DNA of 20,000 nucleotides from Psammoneis japonica (GCA_008632985.1 QPGO01000103.1:245718-265717), one strand, 5' to 3'; positions 1 through 20,000 are shown, counted from the first letter of the stretch. Numbers and translations: made by a program. Notes: generated by a model from the letters alone, not told the origin.

Positions 1-47
1 AAGAAATGCCAGGAGTCACATGTGGACAGGATTCTACAGACATTTTT

Positions 48-79
48 CGTTCTGGGTGGGCATCGCCGGATCCATGTCA
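48..79 (+). repeat. Left terminal inverted repeat of the MULE
   Basis: cgttctgggtgggcatcgccggatccatgtca is the reverse complement of 3580-3611 apart from one CpG/TpG difference. Confidence 0.85.
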
Positions 80-281
80 GCATTCCTGTCTGTCTGCCCG
101 GCGGAATCAACACCCACAGATGCAAGCAAGAACATGATTTGAATTCAAATGGGTCGCTGCCCTGTCAGTTGGCTGCGGTCAGCATCGCCTGCCCATCTCA
201 TCTGATTTCCAATTGTGTTGTTGCGCTGTCATTCATCTGGGTCCGTCGCTTCAGTTCTTTCAATCTAACAACCATGCGACC

Positions 282-3200
282 ATGTCTGGTGCCCCACTCC
301 CTGTCGACGTTGTAGATGATGGCTTGCATGATGACAATGATGACAATGACAAGAACGCAGGAACAGCTTTCAATGACAGTGAGTCTCACAATGATGCAAT
401 TGTGCAAGAAGCAGAGCCACCACCTGTTGATGTGTGCCATGCATTGGACATCCTTGACACTGTCTTTTGTGGTCTTGACGATGATTGGTGCACTCCCATG
501 ATGTTTCCCGTCAATGTCGTCCATTCGAAAGAGGTTCCACCGTCTCTTTTCATGGATGCCAACATCACCGAGTGCCTGGGCAAAGATGGGCCTGGCAGTG
601 TGCTTCATTGACATGTGCACGTCTGCTTTGACACAACGAGGTGTCCCCCACTGCCCGCTGCTGCAAAGCCATTCTCCAAGGATGACACGAGTTGCGCAGC
701 TTTGTTGCAGGACTTCCACCAATGTGCTGCAAGCAATGGGTTCGAGGCAATTTCCAATGGCAATGGCCGCATTGTCTGTTCCTGCTTTCTGACGCATTGT
801 CATAAACCCGAACAACGTGACCCAACAGCTCCGGCCACCTCCTGTCGGAAAACTTCCCTTCATGATGATCGCCGTCGGAACAATCGCAAACAAGGCCACA
901 AGAATCATCCTCGACGACAGCAGACATCCAAGGCACCAAATGTTGAGGACACATGTGGTTGGAACATTTGCATCCAAGCCAATGCTTTTGGCTGTTTCTT
1001 CAAGTGTGGCACTGGGTGTGGCTTTCATTGCAACCACCACAAACGACTTCCTGATGAAATCCAGCAGAAGATTCGTCACCTAAATTCATCCACCACATTG
1101 TCCATGAAGCGCATGAGAAAGGGACGCTTGGGGGCTGGCCATGTGCGCAAACACATTCTCGCCAACAAGGATCACTTTCTGTCCAGGTCGCAGGTTCGTC
1201 GCGTCATGCAAAAGGCGGATCAGGAACAGTTGACCCCATTCTCACCACCCTCCGAAAATGCTGATTTGGATGATGGCATCTTGGAGCTGCAGAAGTTCTT
1301 TCAGAGTCGAGAAGACGTGGAACACTCTGCACTGGCAAGTGGAGCCAATGCTGTGCAGACCCCCACCCAAGAAAGAAACCTGCATTTCCAGTCTTCATTG
1401 CTTTTCAATGAAGCTTGCGTTGATGGAGAAAGGGAGATTCAGAACCTCGAGGAACTTTGTTCCGAGGTTGTTGACCAGTGCAGGCGTGAGAGGGAAGCGG
1501 CGCAGCTTGGTCCTGATGACAACCTGTTCATTGGTGCTGCATGGACACTCAAGGGCGAGAAACGATTGTTTCGCCAAATGCCACATGTGATCAAAGTGGA
1601 CGTAACGTCTCACACAAACAATGAGAAACGGCCTTGCCTGACTTTCTCCACCCGTGCGCCAGATGGGTCTCACTTTGTTTTCCTGCAAATCCATCTTCCA
1701 GATCAAACACAGGGGACGTTTCGGTGGGCATTTCATGTTGCACTGCCCACTCTACTTGATCAAGCATCAATCCAGCAAATCAAGCTTGCGTTGACAGATG
1801 GAGACTCTCAAGAAATCTGCGAGTTGCGCAGTGCCATTCAAGTCTACATGCCCGACGTCTTCCAAGGCCGTTGTGGCTGGCACATTGTGGAAAAGGGATG
1901 GTTGCGTCACTGCCCTGGTGAGAGCTGTGTGTCTCCAGGGCAGAAGCATGAGACCCACAAGCATTTCGTCGCTGCAGTCAAAGCCTGGCTTCATTCATTC
2001 ATGCACCCGGGTGGTTGCGAGAATGAAGATGAACTCAAGGTCTCCAAGTCATTGCTCATCATGTTTCTGCATTCCCCAAGAGTTCTCCAGACATGCGATG
2101 GCAATGAGTCCACTGTGCAGAGAATCATTGCCTTCATCCGAAATGAGGTGTTTGCATGGGAGCGGCATCATGCCTGTCACCTCAAGAAATTCATTCGTCA
2201 CTACGAGGAAGCAAACAATTCAAGTCATGAGGGAACCAACAATGGGATGAAGAACCATTCTGCCCCTGTGCTGCCCTCACAGAATTTAGCCACCAGCGCC
2301 ATCAACTTCGCCATGCAATCCGACGTGAAGGTTGCCGAGTCACACACTGAAAGCAACGGCATGGCCACAACAAAATGTCTCTGGTCCACCTGAGAAGGTG
2401 CCAAGGAGTGCAAGAGACTGCACACCTCGTCACGAGAAGACAAAGCACATCCTGGCAAGGGGACCGGCAACGACAGGGAGGTCGTGGGTGGACTCAGTTC
2501 TACTTCTGCACGTGATGCAGTCCTTGAGCCACTGGCACAAGCCGCCGAGGTTCTGTCAAACCAGCAAGTGGTGGAGAAGTCAACAGGGAGGTCATGGGTG
2601 GACTCGGTTCTACTTCTACATGCGATGCAGTCCTCGAGCCACCAGCACGAGCCGCCGAGCATTCTGTCACACCAGCAAGTGGTGGAGAAGTCAACAGGGA
2701 GGTTGTGGGTGGACTCGGCTCTACTTCTACATGCGATGTAGTCCTCGAGCCACCAGCATGAGCCGTCGAGCGTTCTGTCACACCAGCAAGTGGTGGAGAA
2801 GTCAACAGGGAGGTCGTGGGTTGACTGGGTTCCACTTCTGCACGCGATGCAGTCCTCGAGCCACCAGCACGAGCCGCCGAGCGTTCCATCACACCAGCAA
2901 GTGGTGGAGAAGTCAACAGGGAGGTCGTGGGTGGACTCGGTTCTACAATCGGCGGAAGTGGAACTCGGTGTGGTGACTCCGCCAGGCGAAAATGGTTTGG
3001 AGTGAAAAAAGAACCGAAAACAGCAGAGAGACTGCTTTTGACACCGGCAAAAAAACTTGACACAACCGAATTGGTTTGTGGAGTGCTCTCTCTCTTGGCA
3101 CGATGACGGCGACGGTGCTTCCTCTTGCCCTGACTCTTCAAACAGGAGCGTTCGTGGCGTTTGCGGTGGCAACGCAAGCTGTTGCTGCAAGACTCCAATC

Positions 3201-3398
3201 CGTCTTGATTTCCTCTTTTCGGCTGGGAAAAACAACAAGCACAGTGTGAGAGACTGCAAAATGATGGCACAAAAGGGGAGAAGCACAAAAGGGGAGAACA
3301 AGCCATGCAGCAATGCTTGCGGGGTTGGGTGGCTTCATCGTTGGATGAACAACGTCGTTTGCAAAACAACATTGTGCGTGCGATGTGTGCAAAAGTGA
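282..3398 (+). pseudogene. MULE transposase pseudogene (N-terminal WRKY/FAR1-like Zn-finger candidate, DDE core, 37-aa repeats, C-terminal Cys-rich tail)
   Basis: ATG at 282 is in frame with ORFs 213..611 and 615..2393, which are interrupted by in-frame TGA at 609-611 and 2391-2393. MULE motifs: first Asp in KVDVTSHTN (~1600), second Asp in LTDGD (~1795-1805), CGWH = CxxH (~1872-1883) and catalytic Glu in NSSHEGTN (~2229). CGWNI...HCNHH resembles the WRKY/GCM1-type DNA-binding domain. Frameshifts follow 2393, and the Cys-rich tail is in ORF 3057..3398. Confidence 0.8.
2473..2946 (+). repeat. 111-bp (37-codon) tandem repeat, ~4.3 copies, inside the transposase
   Basis: Units beginning acagggaggt start at 2473, 2583, 2694, 2805 and 2916 (spacings 110, 111, 111, 111). 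Unit 1 lacks one base. The consensus is open in one frame (REVVGGLGSTS.RD.VLEPPARAAERS.TPASGGEVN). Confidence 0.95.
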
Positions 3399-3579
3399 AG
3401 TGAGGAGATGGAGGAATTCAAATTTTCTTCCAAATGCCGGTCATTGAGAATTTCGAACAATGACTTTGCAACGGTTTTTACGATCATTCCCACACGAGGG
3501 TAAACACAAAGAGGATTGGCCTGTTCGCGCTGAAGTTGTCAACAAGCAAACTGACAACAACAGGCTCACTTGACGCACG

Positions 3580-3611
3580 TGACGTGGATCCGGCGATGCC
3601 CACCCAGAACG
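3580..3611 (-). repeat. Right terminal inverted repeat of the MULE
   Basis: tgacgtggatccggcgatgcccacccagaacg reverse-complements to 48-79 with 1 mismatch. Confidence 0.85.
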
Positions 3612-4148
3612 GCACATGGCACTCCAAGTGGAGTCATTTGATCAAGAACCCACATCACAACATTTGGGTGGTTTGCCGGGTGTGGGTCAGGTGGAACTCT
3701 CTTTGGAGGCTGCTTGATTTCTGTTGCACTGCAAATGTCATTTGCTGTGATTGCAAATGTCCCCAATGTCCACAGGCTCAAGTTCAAGAAATGCACAGGC
3801 TGGCATGAAGGGCCGCCACGTGAGTCCCATTTTGTGAATGTGGGTTGGCCTGCGCGTCTTTTTGCTGTCTTTTCTACGTGTGTTTAAGTGCTGAAACTAC
3901 GTGCAATCTGAGAATTTCATTTCTACCTCCCAACAGGAATCACTCGGCTCTCAGAGTCATTGCGTAGAAGTTGTGTAGAAGAGCACCAGAAATGTTTGTT
4001 GTCAGTCTGTCCACCCGTCCGTGTTCGAATGCCAACTCCTCGGGAAATCAATTGAGGTGTCATCTGATCAAGGGTGCTGCTCTTCACCATCTAACACCCT
4101 TGGTCAGATGACATTTCAATTGAGTTCCCGAAAAGTCAGTGGCCCCAA

Positions 4149-4923
4149 TCACCCTCTCGTATGACATTGTGTACATTTCCACACAATTTGGCATTTTTCC
4201 TTGTGCAAAATGCCGGTTGTGACTCTTGTGACATTTTCGAATGATTCCTGTTGAACACTGAAGCGAGAGGTGTTTCTCTTGCCATGACAACTGTGCCGGC
4301 AGCTGAGTCGTCTGAAGAACATGATGGTTTCAAAGAACACGATGACATTGTGAATTGCAACTCTAGATGCAATGTCGCCAATTGCGGTGGCAGTTGAAAA
4401 AAACAATGCCGCTGCAATCGCAATCACCACAAAACAGTTTGTTCCATTCTGAAGCGGCACCCACCTTGTTGCATGACTTCACGGCAGATTGTGCAATGTG
4501 CAAGCATCAACAGATTCAACAAGGGAATCACACAAACCATGCGCCGACAAGTCCATCCGGAATGACTCAATTTGAATGTGGGCTTGAGATTCGGGAGCAT
4601 CGGGATCCGATTCAAATTTCCACTGAACAACAGTGCCTTTCATTGTTGTTGGACTTTCTGTGAATTGCAACCAAGCCCTTGGATCCAGACCCCTTCTGAA
4701 TTGCATCCAATGTCCCACTTTTGGCTGTTCTGCCTCGAAAGCCGCCACTCTGGAGCACACGATGAATGTCTCCTGCATTTGGCCATCAGCCTTTTTCCAT
4801 CAGAGCTCACCAAGACGTGTGCTGTCAAAAGAATGAGAGCATTGTTGACTCTCTTTTTAACAGGACAGCCACTTTTTTCTTTCCTGTGGTGCTGCTCTTT
4901 TTCTTGCTGCTCGTAGATGCCAT
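4149..4923 (-). pseudogene. Decayed small ORF of unknown function (Lys-rich N-terminus, hydrophobic C-terminal segment)
   Basis: MASTSSKKKSSTTGKKK... starts at 4923. After a frameshift near 4825 one frame continues through ORFs 4479..4778 and 4149..4460, interrupted only by TGA stops (~4800, ~4479). It is nearly Tyr-free and His/Cys-rich. No family recognised. Confidence 0.4.
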
Positions 4924-5339
4924 GGCTGCACGAACTACGATGACGGTTGGATGATGTTGGTGTGAGAAAATTGGAAACTCAAATGACGAGCACTGAATCA
5001 CGTAGAAACACACGCACCTTGTCAACGCTTGGCAAGGTCGGCCATGGCAAAAAAGAGATGGCATTTTCACAACAATGGAAGGCGGGGCATCGGTCGCCGA
5101 TGGCATGTTCGAGCCTTTAGAGCATCAAAAGGGACCAATGCAATCATCGGCTTCCGATGCCCCACCTTCCATTGTGCTCAAAATCGCGACGGCGTGATGA
5201 CGCCATTTTGCCGTGCTGTGTTGCGGTGAAAAACACTTGAAGGGTCACGAAAATCCACCATCTGACGGACAGATGATGGACCAAACATTTGCGAAAAAGG
5301 TTGCAAATCGGCACACACAAAATCATTTTAGGATGTGGT

Positions 5340-8300
5340 TGTCAATCATTTTTCTGTTGAGATGACATGCCAGCCTGTCTCTTGAACTTGAGCCTGTGCA
5401 ATGTCAACCTCAGTCCATTGAGAGCAGCCTCAGTGTCAGGCCTTGCACTTGAGCTCCTCAGGAATGGAGGACCTTGTCTTTGTCTTCAATGTTGGGTTGG
5501 TGAAGGAGTTGACAGAGAGGCGTTGCACTTTTGTGGCAGAAAGGACTGCAGCTGATCCATTGAAAAGTCCTCCAACTCCTCATGGATGTGTGGCATGTCC
5601 AAACTTCTAGCACAAATGGGTTGAAATTTCAATTTGAACAAGTGCAAGCTTCCAGAGGCACAATGAAGATGGAGGAATGACTCCTGATGAGAAAACCTTG
5701 CCTTTTGCAAAAATTCTTGGAGAAACTTGCCTTGCAAAGTCGTTGAACTTGCACCCATTAAAGTCATTTCATTTGCATGTGTTGACTGATCAAGTCAGTA
5801 AAATCTTCAGTGGATGTTGGCCAAAACATGATGTGGTTGGAGAGTTTGGTTGTTGCTGTGGTTTTGTTGTGCAGTTGATGGAGACATTGTGCAGTTGCAG
5901 CTGCAATGGATTGACAGACAGGCCTTGTTGAGTTGTGGTTGCGCCTTGCCATGCCAGGTGAAGCTGGTGGCCTCTCCAAGTGGCTCTGGGCAGAGCCCAG
6001 CACAAGCAAAAAAGTTTTTCACAACAACAACCAATGGCAACAGTGGCGCCAATGCATTGGCAAGAGTTTTGAGTTTTGAGCTCATTTTGTTGGGTTCCAG
6101 ATGGGGAAGGATGATGGCAAACAATCAAAAGCAGTGCACTCATTTGAAAACCACACATGTTTGTGCACACAAAGCCAACAAACACACGCCAATGTTGTTG
6201 CACCCCACAACACATTGTGTGCATGCTTCACTCTGTTGTTGATTTTCAATTTCAGTTTCAAGTGATCCAGCACACAACAAAAAAAGTGATTTTGCATGAA
6301 CGGCGCAACAAAGGTTGATCACCAACATGGGGGCACAAAGCAAATTGCCATCTTTTGCTCCAAGAGTCCCTCCATTTTGATGCTGTCCTTGCCGCCTTCT
6401 GTCATCCCTGTCTGCCTTGCCAAAGCCATTGTTGAGCTCCTTCTCCGGCAAGTCTTCCATGTGATCCTTGTCTTTGGCTGAGTCAAAAGAAATGTGCAAA
6501 AATGTCTTGGGTTGATGTGCTGCTTCTTTGACTCACTTGATTTTGTGGCCATTTGCATCAGCAGGATTCTCCAGGCATGTCTGTCTCTTTTGTTCCTTGG
6601 CCTGCTTTTGCAATCATTGCCACTGCAGAGCAATCTGTGCTGTTTGTTCAGCCTGGGGATGCAAGCCCCAATGCATGAAAGTTGACAAAATCCTTGGCCA
6701 GTGTTGTTGCATGTGCCTTGCCAATGCTGCAGAGTTCATCAGGCAGACAGGCTCCAAACCCATTGTGGCAGAGAGGAGCTCTGACAGCTGGCTTCTTTCA
6801 CAGAATCATGAACACCTTTTCACAAAAGCCCTTGGCAATCATGGGTTTTATTTGGCTCCATGTCCAACCAAATTCTCCTGGCAGATTGATGGTCATTGAC
6901 TGGTGGGGCAATCTTTCTCTGGAGGGCACACATGAGCCACTTGCAGTGGGAGGAGAAATGCCAAAGTTTTCCATTTTCCAGTCATCATCCACATTGGCAA
7001 TGAACCCCACCTTGTGACTTAGACTGTGACGGCACTCATGGAGCACATCTGTGGCACAATCAAGTTGAAAATGACCCCACCTTGTTGGCTGTCATTTGTG
7101 ACAGAAAGCATCAACTCAGCTGTGCACAAAACAACAACAAGAGTGGCATTTCCAGCTGCAGCTGCAATTGTCTGCCAGAGAAGCAGTTTGTTGCTGGTGG
7201 CCTTGGGAGGCACTGCCTGCCAGCGGGTCTGCAGCGGTGTTCCTGCAGCTGCAGCACCAGGCTGCCAGGCAACTGCCAGCATGCCCTTGTCAGCAACAGC
7301 TCAGGCTGCATTGACACCAGCCAGGCAGTGTTGCTTGCACAAAATCCAATGCTTGCCTCCTTTGCCTTGACCATGGGGCTGATGACTTTTTGTCAGAGGG
7401 CTTGGAAACCCTCAACAGCTTTTGGGGCATGCCCATTTTGTGTTTGGCTGCGATCCGATTTCCATGTTGCAACATGGCTGACAAATTCGGACAGCTGCAC
7501 ACATGGCACCCCTCTTGGTCCAGCTTTGTCAAGACAGGTCCTCTCTGCTTGCCCAAGGAATGATTGCATTTGCCAAATCTTGGGATCAGTTTTTTTTTAT
7601 TGGAGAGTGGACAACCATCCAAGTTGCACTTGGTGGCAACAAAGAGACCAGCACACCAATGCAATTGTGCTCTCTGTCAGTTTGCGCATTTCTTCTGAGT
7701 GCAGCCATGATTTGCTCACACTCCTTCTCTTGCCAGAGCTCATGTTGTGACACATGCCAACCCCCTTGACAATGGACCCACACCAGCTGTGCACAAAGCA
7801 CTCTGGTCACACAAGAAATGGCTTTGCTTCCAAGTCAAAAAGTGCATTTTGAGCATTGCTTTGTGCAACTTTTTGCCCTTTTCACATCCAACACTGTTTG
7901 AAAGAATCTTTCCACAAAATCCCAGGCACCTGAAATGAAAGAAGGCATGGTCAATGCAAGAAAACCTGTGGCACATGTCAGGTCAACCCACTTTTTCATT
8001 GATGGCACATTCTGGACATCCAGAAAGGCTCTGCATGAGCCAAGTTTTTTTCTGCCAGCACTTCCAAGTGCCACATTTTGACATTGCCCACTTCCTTGTT
8101 GCTGATCAACCACAAAAAAAAAGCAAATGCAAAACAAAGTCATGTCTGGCAACTTGCAAGGTTTTGCCAGAAGCAACCCATGCACCACCCAAAAAGCCAA
8201 CAAAGGCCCCTTTGTGGCTGACTTTCTCATTTTCACAGTCTGCACACAGAAGAGCAAGAGCTGCTTTTTCTGCTTCTGCATGATCACAAGGTAACTCAGG

Positions 8301-9780
8301 AGATGAAGTCAAGCAAGATTTTCACACAAGATCAACACAGAGTCAGGTTTGTGTCTGTGCTTGCCCCGGCCGTCTGCTTTGCCAAAGCAACCAACCACAG
8401 GTTGCTTTCCTTCCATCATCAAACAACTCCAATTCCAGCCTTTGTCTTTCCAGCATCTGTGCTCCACTTCCTGAGCAAAATTGCACAAGTCAAGCCAAAT
8501 TGATTGTGTGGCATGTGGGTGACTGCATGCCCTCATGAGAATTTTGTGACTGAAAAGGTCCTTGGCATGTGGTTTTGAGCTGTTTGAACAACTCATCCAA
8601 CTTTCACTGCACCCACTGCTGGCATTTGTTCTCACATTCTGAATTCACAAAACACTCACACTCTGCCCACCTTCAAACAAGACAAAGTGGACTCACACAA
8701 TCACTGCCTCATTGAACATTTCCAATTTTGTGAGCACATGGGTGCTTTGATGCAGAGCTCTTGTGCCATCTCAAATCCTCTTTGAGACATTTCCAAGTTG
8801 CTCTCAATTTTCCCCTCCAACCAATTGCAGGTCAACAAGTCCTGCTGAACACAAATTTGTGCTCTGTGTCAGTCTCAATTTGTCCATTTTCAGCACATTT
8901 GACCTTGCTGTCATGTCTGGATCTTTGTGCTTGTTGCAGCCAACAATGATTTTTTCTTGAATTTGCCTCAGATCCTGACACCCAACAAGCAGATGAGCAA
9001 CCCCTGCTTTTTTGCTGACTCTGCTGAAATCTGAGATTGGCCACTTTTGACCTCAAATCCCCGGGAAATGATTGGCGCATGGTGCCAGAGATGTGCACAT
9101 CACACCATCAGACAACACAGCACTCTTGCCAATGTCAAAGTTGCCAGAAATGGCTTGTCTGGGCACTGTGGGTGTCTCAGATGGAAAGTTGCAGGAGAGC
9201 CTTTGAGTGTTGGCTGGTTGATCATTTGCCATCTTCTGCAGTTTTTGTGACCAAGTCATTTTGCTGCATCTTTGGCAAGGTCATCCAGCCAAGCTGAGCA
9301 AAAGCAGCAGCCAGTGTTGCTCTGGTCTCTTGGAGGTGTCTTCAATGTTGAGTGCAGATGGCCCCAGCTTCCAGCTTGCTCCTGCATGGTTCTTGGCATG
9401 CTGCAGCAATGAGCTGTCTAGAGCGCAGCATGCCAACTTCTTGTTGGAACCTTGTCCAAGCCCATCATCCCCAACACCCATGAGATTGTTGCCTTTGGTC
9501 TTTGCTCAGTGTCTGGCTCACTCTGTTGCCATGATCACAGTGCTGCACCAGCTGGCGCTGCAAGGAGTGCTTGTTGTGAGTGTTGCATGCTGCAGAAATG
9601 CTGGGGGTGGGAAGTTCCTTTCTCAGCTGCTGAAATGAAGAGCTTGGGGGTGGTGCTGTTTGTGTTCAGCCATTCTCCAAAACTGACCAGTTTGGTCTGT
9701 GCAAAGTGTCCCAATGCATTTGTTCTGGTCTGCTCTGAAGACACTTTTGTTCTTGTGATCCTCATCTTTTCTGGAAATCT
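5340..9780. other. Heavily hypermutated domain (TpA and CpG both almost absent); unidentifiable coding/TE relics
   Basis: By eye only about ten TA dinucleotides and few CG in ~4.4 kb, with strong TG/CA excess. Many overlapping short C/H/Q/W-rich ORFs occur in all frames. Confidence 0.8.
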
Positions 9781-10770
9781 GTTGACCTTCTAGAGCACAA
9801 CTTGGAGAATTGGTTCATGGAGAAGGCCACAGTCTTTGTAAAATTTGGCATTGCTGCTGGGGACCAGCAAGATGACCCCTGTTCTTTTTCTTCCTCAGTG
9901 GTTGGTTGCCCCTCTGCTCTCATTTGAGAAGATCAATGTGGGGCCCAGATGGCGCCAATGGACTTCCAACAAGGCCCGTGCCAGCCAGTGCCAACACAAA
10001 GACATTTTTTGACTTCACAATTGTCTTGCCCCACTTGAAATGAGCACCATGCATGAGACATCACCTCTCCTCATTGATTGAGCATGAGAAACATCTCTTT
10101 TGACTCCTGCAAGGTGTGTGACAAAATGGAAAGTGATTTCCTGCAAGCTCTTCATCTGGCTTCCACTGGTTGTCAGCACAAATTCAGAGCCAACAGGCGT
10201 GTTCAAGAGTTTCTGAGATTTCCTTCAAGCTCTTCATCTGGCTTCCACTGGTTGTCAGCACAAATGCACAACCAACAGGCATTTTCATGATGCACCTGCA
10301 ATTCAGCGGCGTGGTGTTCAACAGCAAGCACAAAGGAAGTCACCACCCCCCACCAATGGGAAACAAATGTGCCAGGTTTGCGTTTGACTGAACTGACCAC
10401 CACCAGCTCAGTCCATGAACAGGACAGCTCCTTGGGAATGATTTTCTTCAATGCCAGCTCATTCATGTGATGCTGGTTCACATCAAACCAAAAAAATTGA
10501 CTGCTCTCGTTCTTCAAAAGCCCCACTTTGCCCAGCTGCTTTGTGCAGTCCCGAAGTTGGCACAGCTGACAGAGCATCATGACACATCCCCAGTTGCTTG
10601 GAATGTCCTGAGGTTGGGGTGCATTTGTTGCTGAAAGTGACAGCGTAATCCTTGACTTCTCGCCAAGGTGCCGGCATCGCTTGATCGGACAAGATCATTG
10701 TGTTGGCGACAACGCGAAAGGCGAGCGCAGCTCCGCGCCTCACGAGTTCCGAGAGTCGAATGAATCATTG
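9780..10770 (-). pseudogene. Decayed gene with a HET/TIR-like module of the FVSHWW...WxCAxxNQW...RxWCxFE type
   Basis: ORF 10203..10580 reads LCQL...NQHHMNEL..KKIIP..SCSWTELV...PGTFVSHWWG...EHH...ACWLCICADNQWK..EEL..NL. In another frame downstream it reads LQESKEMFLMLN..GEVMSHAWCSF (~10030-10110). The motif order matches my recollection of an expanded uncharacterised algal/protist family. Boundaries are approximate. Confidence 0.55.
10135..10282. repeat. Local direct duplication with 82-bp period
   Basis: caagctcttcatctggcttccactggttgtcagcacaaat occurs identically at 10144-10183 and 10226-10265, with similar flanks (gatttcct on the left, ccaacaggc on the right). Confidence 0.9.
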
Positions 10771-10927
10771 GATCTAATGCAGACAGATACTTTACTGTAG
10801 TTTGACAACTCTCATGACAGCTGCGTCTCCTCTCTAAACTAGAGCATCCACTCAATCAAACCATTCTATTTCATTAGAAAGATCAACAAAATACAATCGG
10901 GGAAACCCCAAGCTGCAGAATCAGCAA

Positions 10928-12199
10928 TTACGAAGTGCTGGCGTAAGCCATGTGCGCCCGGTGCGTCTCTTGCTCTAGTTTCCGCCCCATGAGTGTTTTG
11001 ACAGCCTCCTCGGGTGTCAAGGTTTGGTGAATAAGAGCATGGACGACTCGAAAGATTGGTAGTTCCAGTCCACACATGTCGGCGTAGGCAACGGCAACAT
11101 CGGCGGTAGGAACTCCTTCCACAGTGTAGTCCTTTTCAATGTCAGCCACCGCTTCTCCTTTGATGAGACGTTGTCCACACCGCTGGTTGCGACTCTGTGA
11201 GGAAAAGCACGTTAACATCAAGTCTCCAATGCCCGACAAACCATCAATTGTGCTAGGATTACCTCCCATGGCGATGCATAAGTCGCACAGCTCTCGACTG
11301 GCGCGAGTGACACAAGCCGACAACGTGTTTGTTCCAAAACCCATACCAGCCACCATTCCAGCACCGACGGCTAGAGGATTTTTAAGAGCACCACCAAGCT
11401 GTACACCAATTGGATCTTGTGATGTGTATACCCGAAATGAATTGGAGTTGCTCATGATCTTTTGCATCTTGACCGCGAGAAATAGCTGATCCGATGCTAC
11501 AACGACTGCGGTTGGAAATCCTTTTACAACTTCCTCGGCAAAGCTAGGGCCGCTGAGGAAAGCCAAAGGCTGCTGTGCTCTATCCAATGCGTCAAGAATA
11601 GCATGCCCAATCAACTGCTTAGTAGGCAGATAGAGGCCCTTGGCGGTACTGCAGAGTAGCACGTCCGGTGGGATCAAATCCCGGTGCTCCTTGATCCAAG
11701 AGGGCGTCTTTTGGCACGGTAAAGCCAGAATCGCCACGACTCCCGGAGATTGAAATTCCTCCTTCAAGTCGTTTGTCGAACAAATACCACGAATAGTACC
11801 CGACAACTCGTTGAATTTGTATGTTGATAGATACTTTGAATTGTATCCTTCTTGATTCATGGTTTCACACTGTTTTGCATCACGCATAAACATGACCACC
11901 TCGTGACCATTGTTGGCTGCCGTATAAGCCATGGCTGTTCCATAGCTTCCTGCTCCAATAACGAGAACTTTTTGTTTGCTTCCGTTTTTGTGTACAATCT
12001 CCATCACTGGACCCAAAGCGGCACGTTGCCCCTGCTTGAGGTGCTTCTGTACGCGACTGCAGGCATGACGGAGACGTTCACGATCGCGAAGTCTCAGCAA
12101 GTACGTTGCACATCCCACACCTCCTGCAAAGGCGATAGAGACGCTCAAACCCAGTACAATATGAAAACTGTGGTTGTTTGTAGTGGATGACATCAACAT
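10928..12199 (-). CDS. gpsA: NAD(P)H-dependent glycerol-3-phosphate dehydrogenase (GpsA-type) with N-terminal hydrophobic extension
   Basis: 423-aa intact ORF. Motifs: Rossmann VLVIGAGSYGTA, STAKGL, LSGPSFAEEV, GGALKN, GLSGIGDLMLTCFSSQSRN, VEGVPT. Normal dinucleotide composition. Confidence 0.95.
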   Translation of the reverse strand: MLMSSTTNNHSFHIVLGLSVSIAFAGGVGCATYLLRLRDRERLRHACSRVQKHLKQGQRAALGPVMEIVHKNGSKQKVLVIGAGSYGTAMAYTAANNGHEVVMFMRDAKQCETMNQEGYNSKYLSTYKFNELSGTIRGICSTNDLKEEFQSPGVVAILALPCQKTPSWIKEHRDLIPPDVLLCSTAKGLYLPTKQLIGHAILDALDRAQQPLAFLSGPSFAEEVVKGFPTAVVVASDQLFLAVKMQKIMSNSNSFRVYTSQDPIGVQLGGALKNPLAVGAGMVAGMGFGTNTLSACVTRASRELCDLCIAMGGNPSTIDGLSGIGDLMLTCFSSQSRNQRCGQRLIKGEAVADIEKDYTVEGVPTADVAVAYADMCGLELPIFRVVHALIHQTLTPEEAVKTLMGRKLEQETHRAHMAYASTS

Positions 12200-12512
12200 T
12201 GTACCGATAGTCTACTAGCAACGTCGAGGAGAAGCATCACAATGAGGAAATGATGATTTTCGAAAATCGCAAATCGCAAAAAATCAAAATCTGACATGGG
12301 GTTCGCACGTGACGTCATATTTTAACAAAGGGATAGACAGACGGACGTTGAGCGCAAATCACGAATAAATCGACCATGATGAATAATCCGGAGACGAAAC
12401 AAGAAACAATCGCTTTTTCTGGGTTATTTTCTTTAAGCCCGTCACTTCGGTGTTGTCAGGGTTTCTGGCTGAGCGATTTTGTGACGAGTGACGCGATAAA
12501 TAAACAGCAAGA
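12200..12512. promoter_or_regulatory. Probable bidirectional promoter between head-to-head GPDH and AAA ATPase genes
   Basis: 313 bp between divergent start codons. Overlapping CACGTG (12306-12311) and TGACGTCA (12310-12317) palindromes. Confidence 0.45.
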
Positions 12513-14139
12513 ATGGAATCATCGATTTTTCCGCCCAACACAGACGAGAAGCAGCTACCCTTGATCAAGAGCTTGTCGTCGTCGTCGTCGTCGTCAAGCT
12601 CGGGCAGTGACAGTACCGGGAGCTATGAGTCCGCAAACGAAGAAGAATGGAGACGAAAAAAGTGGACCGAACTCGTGATCTCCTGGTTACGGAAAGGGGA
12701 TGAAACACAACACTCTGAAAAAGAAAAGGAACGACGTAAAAAGATGCTTGCCCTTGCCGCAGTTACAACCGTATTATTGATTTGGTTGAGGAAAAAACGA
12801 AAAGGCGGCTTACTACAAACAATATTACCCGCGGTACTAAGCAGTGTAACAAAATCTAAGTCGGTGAATGAGTATCCTGGACGAAATGCGAAGGAAGCAC
12901 CGCTTTCACTGCTTTTGACGGCAGCCAAAAAGGGCCAGATTCTTCGTGCTCGCTTAATGGGTTCGGCCGTAGCCTTCCAGATCCAAGATGGTACATGGAG
13001 GCGTGCGACTGTACCAAAACAGAATCCATCCTTTCAATCCACACTGGTGGAAACGCTTGCTCAAGGAGGGTGTTTGGACGTGGCGGCTGTTCCAGAATCA
13101 ATTTGGTCTCGACTCGCAACTCCCGCTATTGCTGCCCTCCCGTTTGTCTATTTGGCTCTTCTTTACAAAATGATGCGCAATCTACATGACAATACCGACC
13201 CTGTCCGAACCCATGGCAGGGATGCATCGGCTCGTGTCACGTTTCAGGACGTTGCGGGGTTGGACTCGGTCGTGATGGAAGTATCCGAGGTTGTCAGCTA
13301 TCTGGACAACCCCACTGCCTATCATGGAGTGGGAGCTCGTGCTCCACGGGGTATTCTCTTGTATGGACCACCAGGATCAGGCAAGACATTACTGGCCCGT
13401 GCAGTGGCTGGAGAAGCTCAATGTGAGGTATTCATGGCATGCAGCGGAAGTGACTTTGTGGAGAGCTACGTGGGACGAGGAGCTGCCCGCATACGTTCCC
13501 TGTTTGACCGGGCACGTGCTCAAGCGAGGGGTAACGATAAGAATGGTTGGTTAGACTTTCCATGGCGATTCTCTTCAAAGACGACAAGACTGTCCCCAGT
13601 GGTAGAAAGCCGTCTGCCGTTGTATTTATGGATGAAATCGATGCTATAGCCAAGTCAAGATCTGGAGTTGGGGATTGGCCAGCAACGATGAACGGGATCA
13701 TACTCTTAATCAGCTCTTGACGGAAATCGATGGCTTTGCATCCAACGAAGATATCACACTGATTTTCATTGCGGCCACAAACCGCGCCGATGTGCTGGAT
13801 CCCGCAATCCTGCGACGATTTGATCGACGTGTCCATGTGGGGTATCCTGACCAAGAAGGACGGCGTGCCATTCTGGAAATACACGTACGAAACATTCACC
13901 ATGGACACTGTTTAGATCTTGATCAGTTGGCGTCTGATCGAATGACAGCGGGATTCTCGGGCGCTGATCTTCGCAATGTCGTAAATGAAGCTGCGCTCTT
14001 AGCTGTTCGAGAGAAAAGCGCAATCGTGCAACAAAGTCATTTGCTGCATGCGGCACGACGAGTCAAGCAAATGAAAACAAATCTCAGTCACAACGATACG
14101 GATGTTATCCTTTCGAATCTCCCGCCGGGATTGCGATGA
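12513..14139 (+). CDS. FtsH-like membrane AAA+ ATPase lacking the M41 protease domain; split over three frames in this sequence
   Basis: Two hydrophobic segments, [33 protein letters not shown] (Walker A) and [21 protein letters not shown] in ORF 12513..13649. Walker [14 protein letters not shown] is at ~13616-13654 in a second frame. [38 protein letters not shown] and [18 protein letters not shown] are in ORF 13675..14139. The stop comes right after the AAA lid, with no HExxH. Confidence 0.85.
12575..12595 (+). repeat. (TCG)n microsatellite encoding poly-Ser
   Basis: gtcgtcgtcgtcgtcgtcgtc in the N-terminal part of the AAA ATPase ORF. Confidence 0.8.
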
Positions 14140-14218
14140 CAAGCGACGACAGTCTTCTGGCGAAAGTACATGAACAATTTCTGCCGAACAATACGATGAC
14201 AATCTATGAAAATTAACG

Positions 14219-15808
14219 TTATGACCGACTCTTGCTTCTACGATTACTGCTCCTTTTGCGACTTCCACTTCTATAAGAGCTTCTGCCATTGGTAGCCTTA
14301 GATTCACCATCATTTGACCATCCGTTGCTTCCTCGGCCCCGTGTCCTCCTGTAGCTACGCGGTGGGCTTGAAGTTCGTCCATTTTCTCCTTGACCCCACG
14401 ATTTGCGTCGGCCATTCGGTCGACCACCTCTACTAGGCGGACTGCGACTGTTGCTTCTTGTAAATCGATGCGGACTCCAAGACCGTTCCCGATGATAGCC
14501 ATTTTCTCTTCGATGTGGCGAACGGCTACGGCTTCTTGAACGGTCGCGTCGACCGTTCTCTCTGCCCCATTGAGGGGACGAGGATCGATCATGGGGTGGA
14601 TCATCGTCGTAAAGGAATCCATTTCTGACATACCCCGCGGAATCTCCACCGATAGAGACCCCATTCTGATGGAAACGCTTCAACGGTAGATTCATGTATC
14701 GTCCTTGATATCGTCGTACGCCTCTACCCTTGTACACGGTTCCTCCCGGACTTGTCCGTCCATTGGTTTGAGAGGATGAAGCGTCGGCTTGAATCAGTGG
14801 GTTGGACATTGCTTTATCCTGTTCTGAAACATTGTCGTTCTTCTTCTCTTCATCTTCCACGGGATCTGCTTGGCTGCTGTGAATAGAATGACACTCAACA
14901 CTCTCAGCTAGAGATCCGCCACAATCATCTGTATCCACATGTGCAACAACATCACTACTTGCCACCGATCGCTGAGAACCAAAGGACCGGACCGATCCAG
15001 CACGAGATGAGGACCCTCCAAAAGACCGTTCTCCTGGTTGGTGCTGCTGAAGAAGGAGGGACCTTGAAAGTGGCGGCCCCATGTCATTCATGGGGATGGC
15101 CAATGTAGGCCTTAGGGTCGGAGAAGCACGAGCGTTTGGTAGTGGCATGAGCGGTACCTGCTGTGGTCGGGGATGCATGTTTCCAGCGGATAAACCAAGC
15201 GAGGGAGCAAACTCCACTGAACGAGGTGTACCAATACTGCCACTGTTGGATCGTCGAAGACTACTGCCTCCTCCAGGGTTCAGGGTTCCACCCAGGGATG
15301 ATATTCTCTCTGATGTAGGCGTCTGAGGCACATTCATTTCCGCAGATAAGACGCTTGCTACATCGATATCGTCCACGACACTACCAGAGCACACAGTCGC
15401 AATGTCACTCTTGGCCGCTTCACTCGTGGCATAAGACATTGCTGTAGGAAACCGTGTTTCAGAGTTCATAATGTGAGAAGCTCGGAAAAACGAACGATGA
15501 GCGTAGCGTTCTTCAGATCCGGTAGAACCAACCGAACGCATTGACGAAGCGTGTCCCGTAGCACTGTTTGGAGCACCATCACTGAGTGCACCAGATGAAT
15601 GGTATCCCGAGTTGTCGCTCGTGTAATGATGGGACGATAAGGATCGAGAATGGTCCAGAGTCAACGTTTCTGGAGGCCGTTCGTTGCTTCTCCATTTTGG
15701 CGGGGGAGAGGAACGAGGCTCCGATGCACTATCATCATGATGATCTCGTTCGACCCATTCTCGTGCTGGTGATGATCTTTGACCATCATTGGACAGGGGC
15801 TTGTCCAT
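14219..15808 (-). CDS. Uncharacterised Ser-rich, probably disordered protein with C-terminal RS/RG-rich tail
   Basis: 529-aa intact ORF with normal composition. One non-low-complexity island, GRTSPGGTVYKGRGVRRYQGRYMNLPLKRFHQNG, is followed by RSRSRSRSP-type repeats. Convergent with the AAA gene, 79 bp apart. Confidence 0.8.
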   Translation of the reverse strand: MDKPLSNDGQRSSPAREWVERDHHDDSASEPRSSPPPKWRSNERPPETLTLDHSRSLSSHHYTSDNSGYHSSGALSDGAPNSATGHASSMRSVGSTGSEERYAHRSFFRASHIMNSETRFPTAMSYATSEAAKSDIATVCSGSVVDDIDVASVLSAEMNVPQTPTSERISSLGGTLNPGGGSSLRRSNSGSIGTPRSVEFAPSLGLSAGNMHPRPQQVPLMPLPNARASPTLRPTLAIPMNDMGPPLSRSLLLQQHQPGERSFGGSSSRAGSVRSFGSQRSVASSDVVAHVDTDDCGGSLAESVECHSIHSSQADPVEDEEKKNDNVSEQDKAMSNPLIQADASSSQTNGRTSPGGTVYKGRGVRRYQGRYMNLPLKRFHQNGVSIGGDSAGYVRNGFLYDDDPPHDRSSSPQWGRENGRRDRSRSRSRSPHRRENGYHRERSWSPHRFTRSNSRSPPSRGGRPNGRRKSWGQGENGRTSSPPRSYRRTRGRGSNGWSNDGESKATNGRSSYRSGSRKRSSNRRSKSRS

Positions 15809-16329
15809 TACAAAACGGCAACAGAGTTATGGGAGAAACAACAGTGTTCAGAAGTCGGAAGATCTTTCGTTTCTTAGGAACTTCTAAACGCTCAGGCGTT
15901 TCAAGCTCAAAATTTTACCGCTTTTCCCCTCCGCTGTCTTCCAGCTTTGGCTGTAGGGCTTAACGCTTTGCAATTAAAAAAGGAAGATCAACGACAGTTG
16001 TCATTTAAATCTATCTATTCACAGAGCAACAACAACTATGAGCCATGAGATGGGGGGAACTCCATGTAGTACGGTAACATACACTCCCAACTGGGAGGTC
16101 TCTGGGTAGCCTAACATAGTGAAACTCCAACCTACCTGGGGCCTGGGCGGGTGCAGAACTCGCAGACCACGAAGACATGTGTTTCCCTACTTAGGACTTG
16201 AAAACGTGATGACGAACCCTTTCTAATTAAATAATGCCGTCGTCCTACGTCATTGGTGTCCTTAACCCTTTTTAGACATGCGCACTTGAATAATGACGTC
16301 AACAACCATTTCCATTAATTGTGAAACGT

Positions 16330-18760
16330 CGCATTGACGTCGGGGGTTCTGAAATCCGCCACACAACACAAAATGATGACGAACAAGGTTTGTTGAACAA
16401 CAGCAGGTGGTGAGTCGCAACACCACATGTCCACCACCAGCAGTGTGTTGCATGACACCAGCCACAACAGGAGAGCAGGTGGCCAAAGAATGCAAGCAAC
16501 ATCATTTGTTCAGCACTTCCACCGCACTTGGAAGAGCCATCTCTTTGTCTGACAGCAAGAAAGAAAAAGAGACGCTCGGTGAGAACGCCACTGCTGCTGC
16601 GTGGCTGCGCAGACCCTGCTTGCACGCATCACTTTCTTGTTGCAAGTGTGCCACACAACCAAAAGCTGCTGCCTGCACCATGCCAGCTATGGTGAGAGCT
16701 TTGCAGACCAGCAAAAGACAAAAAATGTGTGGGTGGTGGCAGCTGCCACTTTTGTTGTCTGTGTGGAAGCACCCCACAACTTTTTGACAAAAGATTGAAA
16801 AACACAGCAGACTTTAATCAGCAGAGAGATTTAGCATTGTGGGGTGAGCTGCCATTGCCGCAAATGGCAAAGCACCCTTTGGGCTGCCTGATTGTTGGGA
16901 ATGGTGTGGCGCAGCATTGTGCGCCAAGTGTGCACTCTCTCCCAATGCTTGCTTCTGGAGCAGTGTGCAGCGACTCATGAGCAACTTGACCACATTGACA
17001 GCACATTTGGTGCCTGGCTCCTTGTTGTTGTCAAGTGCACTGTTCAACAAAAATTGCGCAAGTTTCTTGGGTGTGTGGGCGCAGCTGCAGCAATTTCAGA
17101 ATTGTTGGAGCACCAGTGCAGCAAGCCAGGCAACACCTCCATCCTCCAAAGTCCAAAACAGCTGTGCACATGTGGTCAACAGTCAATTGTGTGAGATCTT
17201 GGTGCCAACAAAACCACTTCTTTCTTGAGACCTTGCAAGACAGAACACACAGCTCTTGATGGTGGCCAGCACTCCTCCTTCATTGTGGAGCAACCCAAGA
17301 GAGTCTGTTGCAGCAGCAGCCAGTCATCTGCATGTCTGGGTCACCTGTCTTTGTTGCTCTTAGAGCCCCTTGGGATGGCACTGATGTGCTGAGTGCCCCA
17401 CAACTTGTTGACTTGCTTGACTTGCACAAGCCGCCCAGCAGCCGCAGCATTTGTGCTGGCAGCTCAGCTGAGACCTTGCAGCAGTTGCTTGCCTGGAGCC
17501 CCCTTTTGCTGATTTTGGGAGCTGGGGCTGCTTGTGATGGTGTGAAGCCTCCTGCCTGGCCAGTGCAGCAGCGTTTTTGCAGCAGGAGACTCTTGCAGCA
17601 TGCTGGAGCCTTGAGAGCCCACAAAGGACTCCAGACCTGTGAACAAAAGGCCACATGATGATGTGCCCTCTTGGCAGTGCCCTGGTGGTGAGTGGTCACA
17701 TTGGAGGCTTCTCCAGCAGCCTGACAAGGCCATGACCCTTCCTTGCAAGGTGAAACCAGAGGGTTTGCTCTTGAGATCCAAGTCACCAAGAAGCAGCATT
17801 CCTTGACTGCTTTGCTCATCTCAGCAGCCCTTGCAACAATGTGCTGCTTGCAGTGTGCTGACAACCAAAAGGAAAAATGACAGGATTTCAGGGCTGCCAG
17901 CTGGGCAAGTCTTCACAGCCAAGGAGCAGATGGCATCTCAAGCTGCTGGCACATGAGTCTTTGTTGTGATCAAACAACGCAGGGCAAGAGGAACTTTCTT
18001 GCTTTGTTTGTCCCTTTCTTCTGGCACCTCCATTGCATGGACCAGCCTCTCTCTTCCTTTTGACCAAGGAGTGCATGCCAGCAAAGGCAAGGGAGCATTT
18101 TAAGGCCTTGGCCTTCTTGCTCAAGTCTCGCAGATTATTTTGGCTCTGGCACTTGACACTGGGTGCCTGCCAAGCTTGTTGAGCAAGGGAAGGGTGCCCA
18201 AGAGAGAGGAAGAGCAATGCGTGGAAAGACCATGCAAGAAAGCCTGCACCTGACAACAACAGCTTCAACAAAATGACATTGCTTGGAGAACTTGGCACCC
18301 TGGTGCACCAGACAACAAGGTGGAGGCAGTGGAGAAGGAGGAGTGCAAGGAACTGTGGCGTGAGCATCTTGATCAAACTTGGGTGGCAAGAGGACAGCCA
18401 CACAAGCTGCAGGAGGAGCCAGAGGGCCAGGAGGGGACGGAGGTGCCGGTGAGCTGCAACGTGCAAAGCAATGGTGTTCAGTGCACAGCACTGAGATGCT
18501 GATGGTCCACCAACCTCCAGGCAACTGCAAATTCCAGCAGCCAAGAGCAGAGCATGGAGCACTGCTGGGGAGGCAAAGGGGCAAGACAAGGCTTGCCTGT
18601 GCAAGCTTGTTGCCAAGAATGACACAGGTGAGTGTGACCTCACTGATGAGGCCTTTCTTTGATCCCAGCAGTGATCACCCAGTGCCCATGGAGGTGAATG
18701 CGAAACTGTTGGAGCAAGGAGTGGTGCTGTTTGGGTCCAAGAAACACAGCAAGAACTCAC
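16330..18760. other. Second hypermutated domain (TpA-free, CpG-poor) with unidentifiable coding relics
   Basis: Only about six TA dinucleotides seen (16688, 16815, 16832, 17361, 18101, 18136), with TG/CA excess and overlapping C/H/Q-rich ORFs. Confidence 0.8.
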
Positions 18761-19107
18761 TGTAACAAGCGCAAGCACAAAGCAATGGAAGTACAAAGTG
18801 GCGAGGGAGAACAAGAGGCCAACGTGCAATCTAATCATCTGCAGTAGACACCACTTTACTGTGTTCTGTGCAGTTCTTTGTACATTGCACTTTGTGTGCT
18901 TTCAATGGCGTGCACAGCCTCTTTCAATGGAAACAACAAATGTCCTCAAACCAAACGCAGTTCACCAACTAACCTACATTGTAGTGCTGAATAAAATTTG
19001 TTCAGCAACACAACTAAAACTGGTTGACGCACCACACCCCTCCACTCGTTGCTCTCTCACTTGCTTTTCTCTGTCCCTTGCTGCTCCTTTTTCCCAACAC
19101 CCTCCGA

Positions 19108-19518
19108 TCACCCTTCTGCCCCGCCTCCCCACTCCTCCACCGCTTTGGGTTTCTTTCTTTTCCGAGATCCGTTGCGCTTTTTCTTTTGCTTCTTCTTTTT
19201 GTTAGACTTGGGCGTGGCCCAGCATGGATGCATAATCAAGCCGTCCATTGCCGTTCCATCGAGGTCCTCCATGGCCGCCAAGGCGTCTTCGTGCCACTGA
19301 AAAGTCACAAAGGCAAATCCGCGATTTTGTCCATGCTCATTGAGGGGGATGACAACATCCTTTACTGGGCCCCTGCCCTGCATTGTGTGGCGCACGCTAT
19401 GGTGGGTGGCTGTGGGGGGAATTGGGAGGAACACTTTCTTGGGGAAGCGAGAAGTGGTCGTTGTGGAGGCGGTAGTGGTAGTGGCGGTGGAGACGGAGTT
19501 GTTGGAGGAGGCGCTCAT
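19108..19518 (-). CDS. Small single-RRM RNA-binding protein (possibly partly mutated or a pseudogene)
   Basis: 136-aa ORF: KKVFL (RNP2-like), GPVKDVVIP...GQNRGFAFVTF...EDALAAMEDLDG (RNP1), then WA and a Lys/Arg-rich tail. No Tyr in the ORF; it ends in TGA. Confidence 0.7.
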   Translation of the reverse strand: MSASSNNSVSTATTTTASTTTTSRFPKKVFLPIPPTATHHSVRHTMQGRGPVKDVVIPLNEHGQNRGFAFVTFQWHEDALAAMEDLDGTAMDGLIMHPCWATPKSNKKKKQKKKRNGSRKRKKPKAVEEWGGGAEG

Positions 19519-20000
19519 GTTGGAGTTCTAGTTTGTCGATGTGTTGGGTCTGTGGATGTTTGAGTTTTGGATTTTGTGAGACCAAAGGGAGGTGCAGAAA
19601 AAAAAGTAGAAATGATCACGATTCATTCACAACACACGTTTGAAGATGAGGTCGCACGTTTGACGTTTGGGTTTGAGTTTGGATTAAGTCGTGCTTGCAA
19701 CACCGCGAGCTCTACCGGTTCCACTGTTCGCTTCTGCCCCCTGCCCAGGCAATTTTTCCTTGTGCTTCTTCTCATGAGCATGCACCAATGCTGTGGTGAC
19801 GTTTACCAACGCCGCACAAACGCAGGCACGATTCGGCTCAAATGCGTTTTGATCTTCACGACTCCGGTTGTTGGGAATCAGACCGGCTACCGTAACAAAC
19901 AGACTCAACGATTGTGCTCTGCTTCCATAAATTGTACACCTTGACATTTTGCTTCTGACCGACAGCGCATGGCTGCTCGAAATGATTGAGTTGATGACAC

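Follow-up and report, generated by a model that had tools for sequence, protein, structure and literature searches.

TpA depletion beside host genes of the diatom Psammoneis japonica: a probable footprint of region-targeted TpA-to-TpG/CpA hypermutation

A 20,000-nt stretch of the Psammoneis japonica genome (QPGO01000103.1:245718-265717; hereafter the window, from whose first nucleotide all coordinates are counted) carries two long blocks almost devoid of the dinucleotide TpA, one of which harbours the open reading frame (ORF) of a Mutator-like element (MULE) transposase, on either side of an island of host genes in which TpA is common. We consider it probable, at about 0.72, that the blocks record region-targeted hypermutation of TpA to TpG or CpA in transposon-derived or otherwise silent diatom nuclear DNA, with the host genes spared. 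Under this proposal, A:T-to-G:C transitions on either strand, at a dinucleotide that is its own complement, would have turned some 80-95% of the TpA in both blocks into TpG or CpA. Ordinary methyl-CpG decay would be superimposed in two of three sub-blocks, and the adjacent host genes, with the DNA between them, would have been left unaltered. Encoded proteins would have been ruined by missense change, with every conserved Tyr gone while the frames remained long and open, and the process might serve specifically to defend the genome against mobile DNA.

Fungi and animals are both known to hypermutate selfish DNA in a targeted way, the former through repeat-induced point mutation (RIP, with C-to-T changes) and the latter through APOBEC and ADAR enzymes. 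For an A:T-to-G:C counterpart acting at TpA there is a single report known to us, a 2026 preprint on one rhizarian alga, with the enzyme unnamed (Mettrop et al., bioRxiv 10.64898/2026.01.13.699255). The initial annotation of the window had presented the phenomenon as undescribed; that part of its claim falls, because TpA-to-TpG/CpA hypermutation of foreign DNA, together with an ADAT2-type proposal, appears in the same text for that alga, Bigelowiella natans (bioRxiv 10.64898/2026.01.13.699255).

TpA loss in blocks with sharp edges

Dinucleotide observed/expected ratios (o/e) were tallied by block and by 500-bp bin across the window, which divides as follows.

1-10646, unstranded: TA-poor block 1; 46 TA (o/e 0.07), open to the left, where it continues beyond the window, and closing at a sharp right edge
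1-5310, unstranded: sub-block 1a; TA-poor with CpG mildly lowered, 34 TA and 223 CG
5311-10640, unstranded: sub-block 1b; TA-poor and CpG-poor, 11 TA and 30 CG, no recognisable coding capacity
10647-16319, unstranded: gene island with GPDH, an AAA ATPase and a 529-aa ORF; unmutated internal control
16320-18760, unstranded: TA-poor block 2; 6 TA (o/e 0.04) and 31 CG (o/e 0.18), poor in CpG from 16626 onwards, without recognisable coding capacity

The initial annotation had noted that TA is nearly absent from 1-10.65 kb and 16.33-18.76 kb and common between them, and the counts bear this out (o/e 0.07 and 0.04 versus 0.58). Positions 1-10650 combine a TA o/e of 0.07 with TG and CA at 1.68 and 1.71, positions 16331-18760 retain six TA (o/e 0.04) with TG at 1.85 and CA at 1.78, and the island (10651-16330) holds 211 TA (o/e 0.58). 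At the island ratio, ~407 TA (192 + 215 for the two sub-blocks) would be expected in 1-10640 versus the 45 (34 + 11) observed, and the TA o/e stays between 0.00 and 0.32 in each 500-bp bin from 1 to 10500. A final TA-free gap spans 9839-10646, TA is dense from 10775 onwards, this density ends after 16316, and TA is back at 18763. The loss is region-targeted, as is evident from these edges and from the sparing of intergenic DNA within the island, where four stretches hold 56 TA per 1184 bp (o/e 0.46-0.76), alongside island coding DNA at 0.54-0.61. The retention of intergenic TA in the island excludes a neutral bias that acts across the genome and is hidden in genes by selection.

Stop words are skewed in the same DNA: the six frames of 1-10650 contain 520 TGA, 23 TAA and 35 TAG, and the earlier remark that premature stops are all TGA largely holds. 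A sense codon never becomes a stop through A-to-G or T-to-C change at TpA, which turns TAA into TGA or CAA and TAG into TGG or CAG. Because conversion at TpA is unable to make stops, the damage is missense only and long frames stay open.

Ordinary methyl-CpG-type decay is a second, separate process in 5311-10640, where 30 CG remain (o/e 0.10), and in 16626-18700, where 16 remain; the CG o/e of 1-5310 is 0.66. In two of the three blocks, this decay accounts for roughly half of the excess TG/CA, a contribution missed by the initial annotation, whose description of the excess itself (o/e 1.68-1.85) was correct. CpG decay is incapable of removing TA, and the two signatures are separable, given that block 1a is TA-stripped at a CpG o/e of 0.66 and that four metagenome MULE loci (L030, L040, L054 and L056) combine a CG o/e of 0.00-0.20 with ordinary TA (0.46-0.73). 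These four loci resemble methylated, decaying transposons of other environmental eukaryotes. Among diatom transposable elements, CpG methylation by DNMT5a, and silencing, are established (PMC9998398), and such methylation explains the CpG-poor sub-blocks.

A transposase stripped of tyrosine and the polarity of change

The element in block 1 comprises the following parts.

615-2393 (+): 592-aa MULE (Mutator-like) transposase ORF, TGA-terminated, stripped of conserved Tyr; PF10551
2473-2946, unstranded: 111-bp tandem array of 4.3 copies, standing where the C-terminal third of the transposase would be and containing seven residual TAs
41-79 (+): 39-bp inverted repeat, left arm, which aligns with 3580-3618 once the latter is reverse-complemented; putative terminal inverted repeat of the MULE
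3580-3618 (-): 39-bp inverted repeat, right arm, pairing with 41-79

The ORF matches PF10551 at 31.2 bits, above the Pfam cut-off of 27.6, and aligns with 13 homologues at 25-44% identity, sharing 34 invariant columns with them; by tblastn, transposase homology runs in a single frame over 621-2426, with one high-scoring segment pair at 621-2387. An open frame of 592 codons has a probability of ~9e-8 per start at the local stop density, which marks the ORF as the remnant of a real gene. The window lacks the C-terminal third of the ~1000-aa homologues, the tandem array occupying its place. MULEs are defined by terminal inverted repeats and a 9-11-bp target-site duplication; the 39-bp inverted repeat may represent the ends of the element, and no target-site duplication was seen at the ends of the 41-79/3580-3618 pair.

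Relatives' DNA, polarisation in the protein and dinucleotide bookkeeping all establish that the TA loss is derived and not intrinsic. For the first, 57 metagenome loci encoding related MULE transposases were compared over the matched gene segment and over 669 1-kb windows. TA o/e in the matched segment is 0.34-0.92 in 57/57 loci versus 0.07 in the window, whose ORF holds 7 TA per 1779 bp (0.0039), and 0/669 of the 1-kb windows fall below 0.25. For the second, a consensus-Tyr column was one with Tyr in at least half of the 13 homologues, and the homologues themselves served as a leave-one-out control. The window ORF retains the consensus residue at 0/13 such columns versus 164/326 other consensus columns (Fisher p 2e-4), and the homologues retain 40-100% of their own consensus Tyr. 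The possibility, raised in the initial annotation, that homologous transposases are equally poor in TA and Tyr is thus contradicted by both comparisons.

The replacements also have the expected character. The 592-aa product contains 2 Tyr, 36 His and 26 Cys, and the earlier comparison with the 11 Tyr of the 423-aa GPDH is accurate. At the 13 Tyr columns the residues are now His (four), Cys (three), Arg (two), Ala (two), Leu and Phe, giving a His/Cys share of 7/13, versus 21/162 of the replacements elsewhere (p 1e-3). Tyr residues invariant in 13/13 homologues have become His at position 460, within WLHSF, and Leu at position 474, in agreement with the suggestion in the initial annotation that many His and Cys occupy former Tyr positions. 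Three of the peptides it had quoted in support (ETHKHF, WLHSF and RHHACHLKK) occur in the ORF, and a further one, HVHVCFDTTRCP, was not found as written. Retention of non-Tyr consensus residues by the window ORF is 0.50, inside the homologues' range of 0.48-0.85, and this paucity of other decay implies that TA was lost fast relative to it.

For the third line of evidence, island DNA served as the internal baseline from which losses of TA and CG and gains of TG+CA were reckoned in each TA-poor block. The sums nearly balance throughout: in 1-5310, 157 TA and 109 CG lost (267) versus 277 TG+CA gained; in 5311-10640, 204 TA and 265 CG lost (469) versus 450 gained; and in block 2, 209 TA + CG lost versus 202 gained. 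A simulation in which island DNA was altered solely by TA-to-TG/CA and CG-to-TG/CA conversion, with two parameters, reproduced the 16 dinucleotides of 1-5310 (root-mean-square deviation reduced from 0.218 to 0.057, r 0.985), this fit being reached with ~80% of TA and ~35% of CG converted. Within the tandem array, 14/22 variable columns among the four copies compared are alternatives among TA, TG, CA and CG; three variable columns alternate between TA and TG or TA and CA, and at two sites one copy reads TG where another reads CA. The Tyr polarisation, the mass balance, the simulation and the TA of the island's intergenic DNA together uphold the central proposal of the initial annotation, namely that TpA on both strands was converted to TpG/CpA as a derived change targeted to particular regions.

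Both strands are affected equally, with 1122 TG versus 1132 CA in 1-10650 and with four Tyr-to-His replacements (T-to-C on the sense strand) versus three Tyr-to-Cys (A-to-G). Every TA context is down by at least 80%, the block/island ratio being 0.01 for ATA and 0.05 for TAT, and a 5' A precedes 1/51 of the surviving TAs versus 54/210 in the island (p 3e-5). Two general mutational biases were considered and ruled out: mutagenesis at WA motifs of the Pol eta type, in that AA and TT are not depleted in block 1 (o/e 1.25 and 1.25 versus 1.12 and 1.08 in the island), and GC-biased gene conversion, in that block 1a shows no change in AA, TT or AT.

Known systems, candidate chemistry and rival explanations

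The closest known parallel is the hypermutation of integrated DNA of nucleocytoplasmic large DNA viruses (NCLDVs) and virophages in B. natans. In mutation-accumulation lines of that alga, the preprint places 231/302 nuclear point mutations in two integrated viral regions; 230/231 of the de novo mutations in viral insertions are A-to-G/T-to-C, the authors place all of them on TpA, and rates in the viral regions are ~1000-fold over background (bioRxiv 10.64898/2026.01.13.699255). The same text describes 124 genomic clusters of 1-kb windows depleted of TpA and enriched for CpA+TpG, and low-TpA coding sequences with a mean TpA frequency of 0.0018 in which DDE-endonuclease (DDE-transposase) and reverse-transcriptase domains are enriched (bioRxiv 10.64898/2026.01.13.699255). 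The window and B. natans share the TpA target, the TpG and CpA products on either strand, the alteration of foreign or mobile sequence next to ordinary host genes, and the clustering of TpA depletion with CpA/TpG enrichment, and the MULE ORF, with a TpA frequency of 0.0039, may be set against the mean of 0.0018 for the B. natans low-TpA coding sequences. The process behind the window would be of the same kind as that seen directly in the mutation-accumulation lines reported there.

The two cases nevertheless differ in several respects. The window belongs to a stramenopile diatom, whereas B. natans is a rhizarian chlorarachniophyte. The preprint gives a directly measured rate for B. natans, whereas the window is known by its end-state alone; the window is near saturation (o/e 0.04-0.07), whereas an NCLDV region of B. 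natans has a Rho of 0.45; and the identified target here is a DNA transposon with co-occurring CpG decay, whereas there it is integrated viral DNA (bioRxiv 10.64898/2026.01.13.699255). A full-text literature search found the signature described in no diatom or other stramenopile, the supplements of the preprint, which possibly include other species, lying outside that search. By analogy with B. natans, the window is likely a saturated instance of TpA hypermutation in a second lineage, its presence in a diatom being the new element.

Other known systems share some of these features. Fungal RIP, of the RID/DNMT4 type, is likewise a defence-like process that hypermutates mobile DNA by region-targeted transitions and has sharp boundaries at genes, but it runs in the opposite direction: it converts CpA to TpA and so gains TA and stops, whereas in the window TA is erased and TAA and TAG together number 58 versus 520 TGA. 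Methyl-CpG deamination, which in diatoms would follow from the DNMT5a-dependent methylation of transposable elements (PMC9998398), matches the CpG-to-TpG/CpA change of 5311-10640 and 16626-18700 but leaves TA untouched, unlike 1-5310, which is TA-stripped at a CpG o/e of 0.66. The initial annotation was right that neither RIP nor CpG decay explains the TA loss, TA having been lost and not gained and CpG-decayed loci having kept theirs. Editing by APOBEC and ADAR enzymes resembles the pattern in the window as a deaminase-style, context-specific hypermutation of selfish nucleic acids; however, these enzymes act on C or on one strand of RNA or cDNA, whereas the changes in the window fall on both DNA strands at A:T pairs, in the transposon and in non-coding DNA.

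As to the chemistry of the proposed TpA hypermutation, we tentatively suggest, at somewhat less than even odds and by analogy, that a polynucleotide adenosine deaminase favouring a 5' T (ADAT2/3- or TadA-like) deaminates adenine in DNA, giving hypoxanthine. The authors of the B. natans study likewise propose adenosine deamination in DNA by an ADAT2-like protein (bioRxiv 10.64898/2026.01.13.699255). The missense-only nature of conversion at TpA, whatever its chemistry, explains why the 592-codon transposase ORF is intact. A broader idea, which we regard as possible but short of an even bet, is that TpA editing of DNA, far from being special to one chlorarachniophyte, forms a conserved genome-defence pathway of the SAR (stramenopile, alveolate and rhizarian) lineages, saturating on diatom transposons, missense-only, removing all tyrosines without making stops, and independent of CpG methylation.

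Because TpA is palindromic, all results from the window fit T-to-C as well as A-to-G change, and the chemistry might instead be directed at thymine. The T before A would then be mispaired, or modified (an enzyme of the TET/JBP type could, for example, oxidise it to 5-hydroxymethyluracil), and become fixed as C, which yields CpA on one strand and TpG on its complement. Dinoflagellate 5-hydroxymethyluracil is enriched at TpA. We nonetheless judge thymine chemistry unlikely, as nothing in the window favours it and the sole published proposal is adenosine deamination.

Also improbable, and a little more so, is a by-product of heterochromatin in place of a defence, with a polymerase or repair bias acting at TpA in silent chromatin only. 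The TA-poor blocks do coincide with CpG-decayed and probably methylated, silent DNA, and diatom transposable elements are methylated and silenced (PMC9998398). A by-product of the Pol eta WA type, however, predicts a loss of AA and TT, which stand at 1.25 and 1.25 in block 1, and both the CpG-decayed MULE loci with normal TA and the TA-stripped block 1a at a CpG o/e of 0.66 separate TA loss from CpG decay.

There is also a small chance that the signal is an artefact of assembly or base-calling, in which a DNA modification makes a long-read base-caller misread TA as TG or CA; an artefact limited to TA would equally spare the remainder of the ORF, as seen. Yet a symmetric modification, with plus-strand reads giving TG and minus-strand reads CA, should often yield CG, which is depleted to an o/e of 0.10, and the copies of the 111-bp array hold fixed, differing TA, TG and CA states. 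We know of no eukaryotic modification artefact of this kind. The same spectrum was, moreover, measured as a real process from Illumina data in B. natans (bioRxiv 10.64898/2026.01.13.699255).

Very improbable is an intrinsic composition or selection, that is, a TA-avoiding donor or selection against TA. Blocks 1b and 2 are indeed odd in other ways (AT low, GC high) that are possibly ancestral, but TA is ordinary in all 57 related MULE loci, family-invariant Tyr residues have been replaced, three unrelated blocks carry one signature, and the mass balance matches conversion. RNA-level A-to-I editing of element transcripts by an ADAR-like enzyme, copied back to DNA, is scarcely credible: ADAR-type enzymes favour a 5' U, as the Discussion of the preprint states (bioRxiv 10.64898/2026.01.13.699255), but the sole identified element is a DNA transposon, the equal effect on the two strands (TG ~ CA; Tyr-to-His 4, Tyr-to-Cys 3) disfavours an edited RNA intermediate, and non-coding flanks are altered as much as the ORF.

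Several points weigh against region-targeted TpA hypermutation of transposon-derived DNA, among them the artefact just discussed. Polarity is read from protein columns and dinucleotide balance in place of a nucleotide-level spectrum from copies of the element, and no dispersed second copy of any element was found within the window, where two tandem arrays and short inverted repeats were detected. Strand-coordinated clustering of TG versus CA is absent by a runs test in 1a (z 0.07) and 1b (z -0.43), so these sub-blocks give no positive support for a deaminase acting on single strands; block 2 shows a weak strand-clustering signal (z -2.43, dispersion p 0.03). No enzyme for TpA conversion is encoded in the window. 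Derivation from a transposon is shown for 615-2426 only, blocks 1b and 2 being without identifiable origin, and the placement of the window among diatoms from its own sequence comes from one gene tree, that of GPDH. A restriction of conversion to TpA agrees with 1-5310 (r 0.985 over 16 dinucleotides), whereas blocks 1b and 2 carry additional deviations that lie outside the two-process model, namely AT o/e of 0.79 and 0.60, GC o/e of 1.31 and 1.39, raised AG/CT and lowered GA/TC. These may reflect the ancestral composition of the elements or a third context effect.

If the proposed TpA hypermutation is correct, a saturated footprint in a diatom would make the phenomenon widespread among ecologically dominant marine algae. 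A second genome with the signature would open the way to comparative identification of the enzyme, and its occurrence in two distant lineages could allow phylogenetic profiling to pin down what is possibly the first natural defence DNA adenine deaminase. Natural DNA adenine deaminases are of direct interest for base editing. Annotation is affected as well, in that hypermutated regions yield long spurious ORFs and Tyr-free, His/Cys-rich pseudo-proteins that gene finders and homology searches mishandle.

Neighbouring genes and other sequence in the window

The gene island encodes the following.

10928-12199 (-): GPDH, 423 aa, 11 Tyr; Pfam annotation
12513-14139 (+): AAA ATPase; Pfam annotation
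14219-15808 (-): 529-aa ORF, without assigned function

GPDH is 70% identical to its counterpart in Seminavis, 68% in Cyclotella, 67% in Thalassiosira and 76% (over partial length) in Pseudo-nitzschia, and 55-58% identical to that of Triparma; its top matches reach 80-84%, with none at 100%. In a maximum-likelihood tree it falls within a 100/100-supported clade whose named members are diatoms save one Alexandrium-labelled row. That row, a EukProt entry with an Alexandrium scaffold label (P0066), groups inside the Thalassiosirales, and the data set it comes from may be contaminated with diatom sequence. The AAA ATPase lies in two ORFs, one matching positions 1-57 and the other positions 77-131 of a single AAA-domain profile, which suggests that a frameshift or a short intron interrupts it near 13640.

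To the right of block 2, positions 18761-20000 show intermediate TA depletion (26 TA, o/e 0.34; TG 1.37, CA 1.41), and an RRM-domain ORF at 19111-19527 (-) lies inside this partly depleted segment, whose state may reflect spill-over or another, partly mutated element.

A Pfam scan of 92 stop-to-stop ORFs of at least 80 aa gave nothing in 2394-5310, 5311-10640 or 16320-18900; its only matches, to AAA/AAA-lid (13636-14136) and to RRM (19111-19527), lie outside the TA-poor blocks. A six-frame read-through Pfam search of the same blocks, with X at stops, returned DUF7060 at E 0.03 alone, tRNA and Rfam scans of the window produced no matches, and no homologue of the ORF at 17891-18901 (-) was found among 8000 scored candidates. 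Long ORFs run in six frames of the TA-poor blocks because TAA and TAG are nearly gone, and their Cys/His-rich translations, which attract false matches, are an annotation trap. The ORF at 7004-7747 (+) exemplifies such Cys-rich false matches: it had nine protein matches, each in 3-9 short stretches, which were rejected as compositional, and the five that were scanned are long bacterial Ig/PKD repeat proteins. Imperfect palindromes also occur in the TA-poor DNA, at 4040-4131 (92 bp, 80%) and 5063-5184 (122 bp, 74%).

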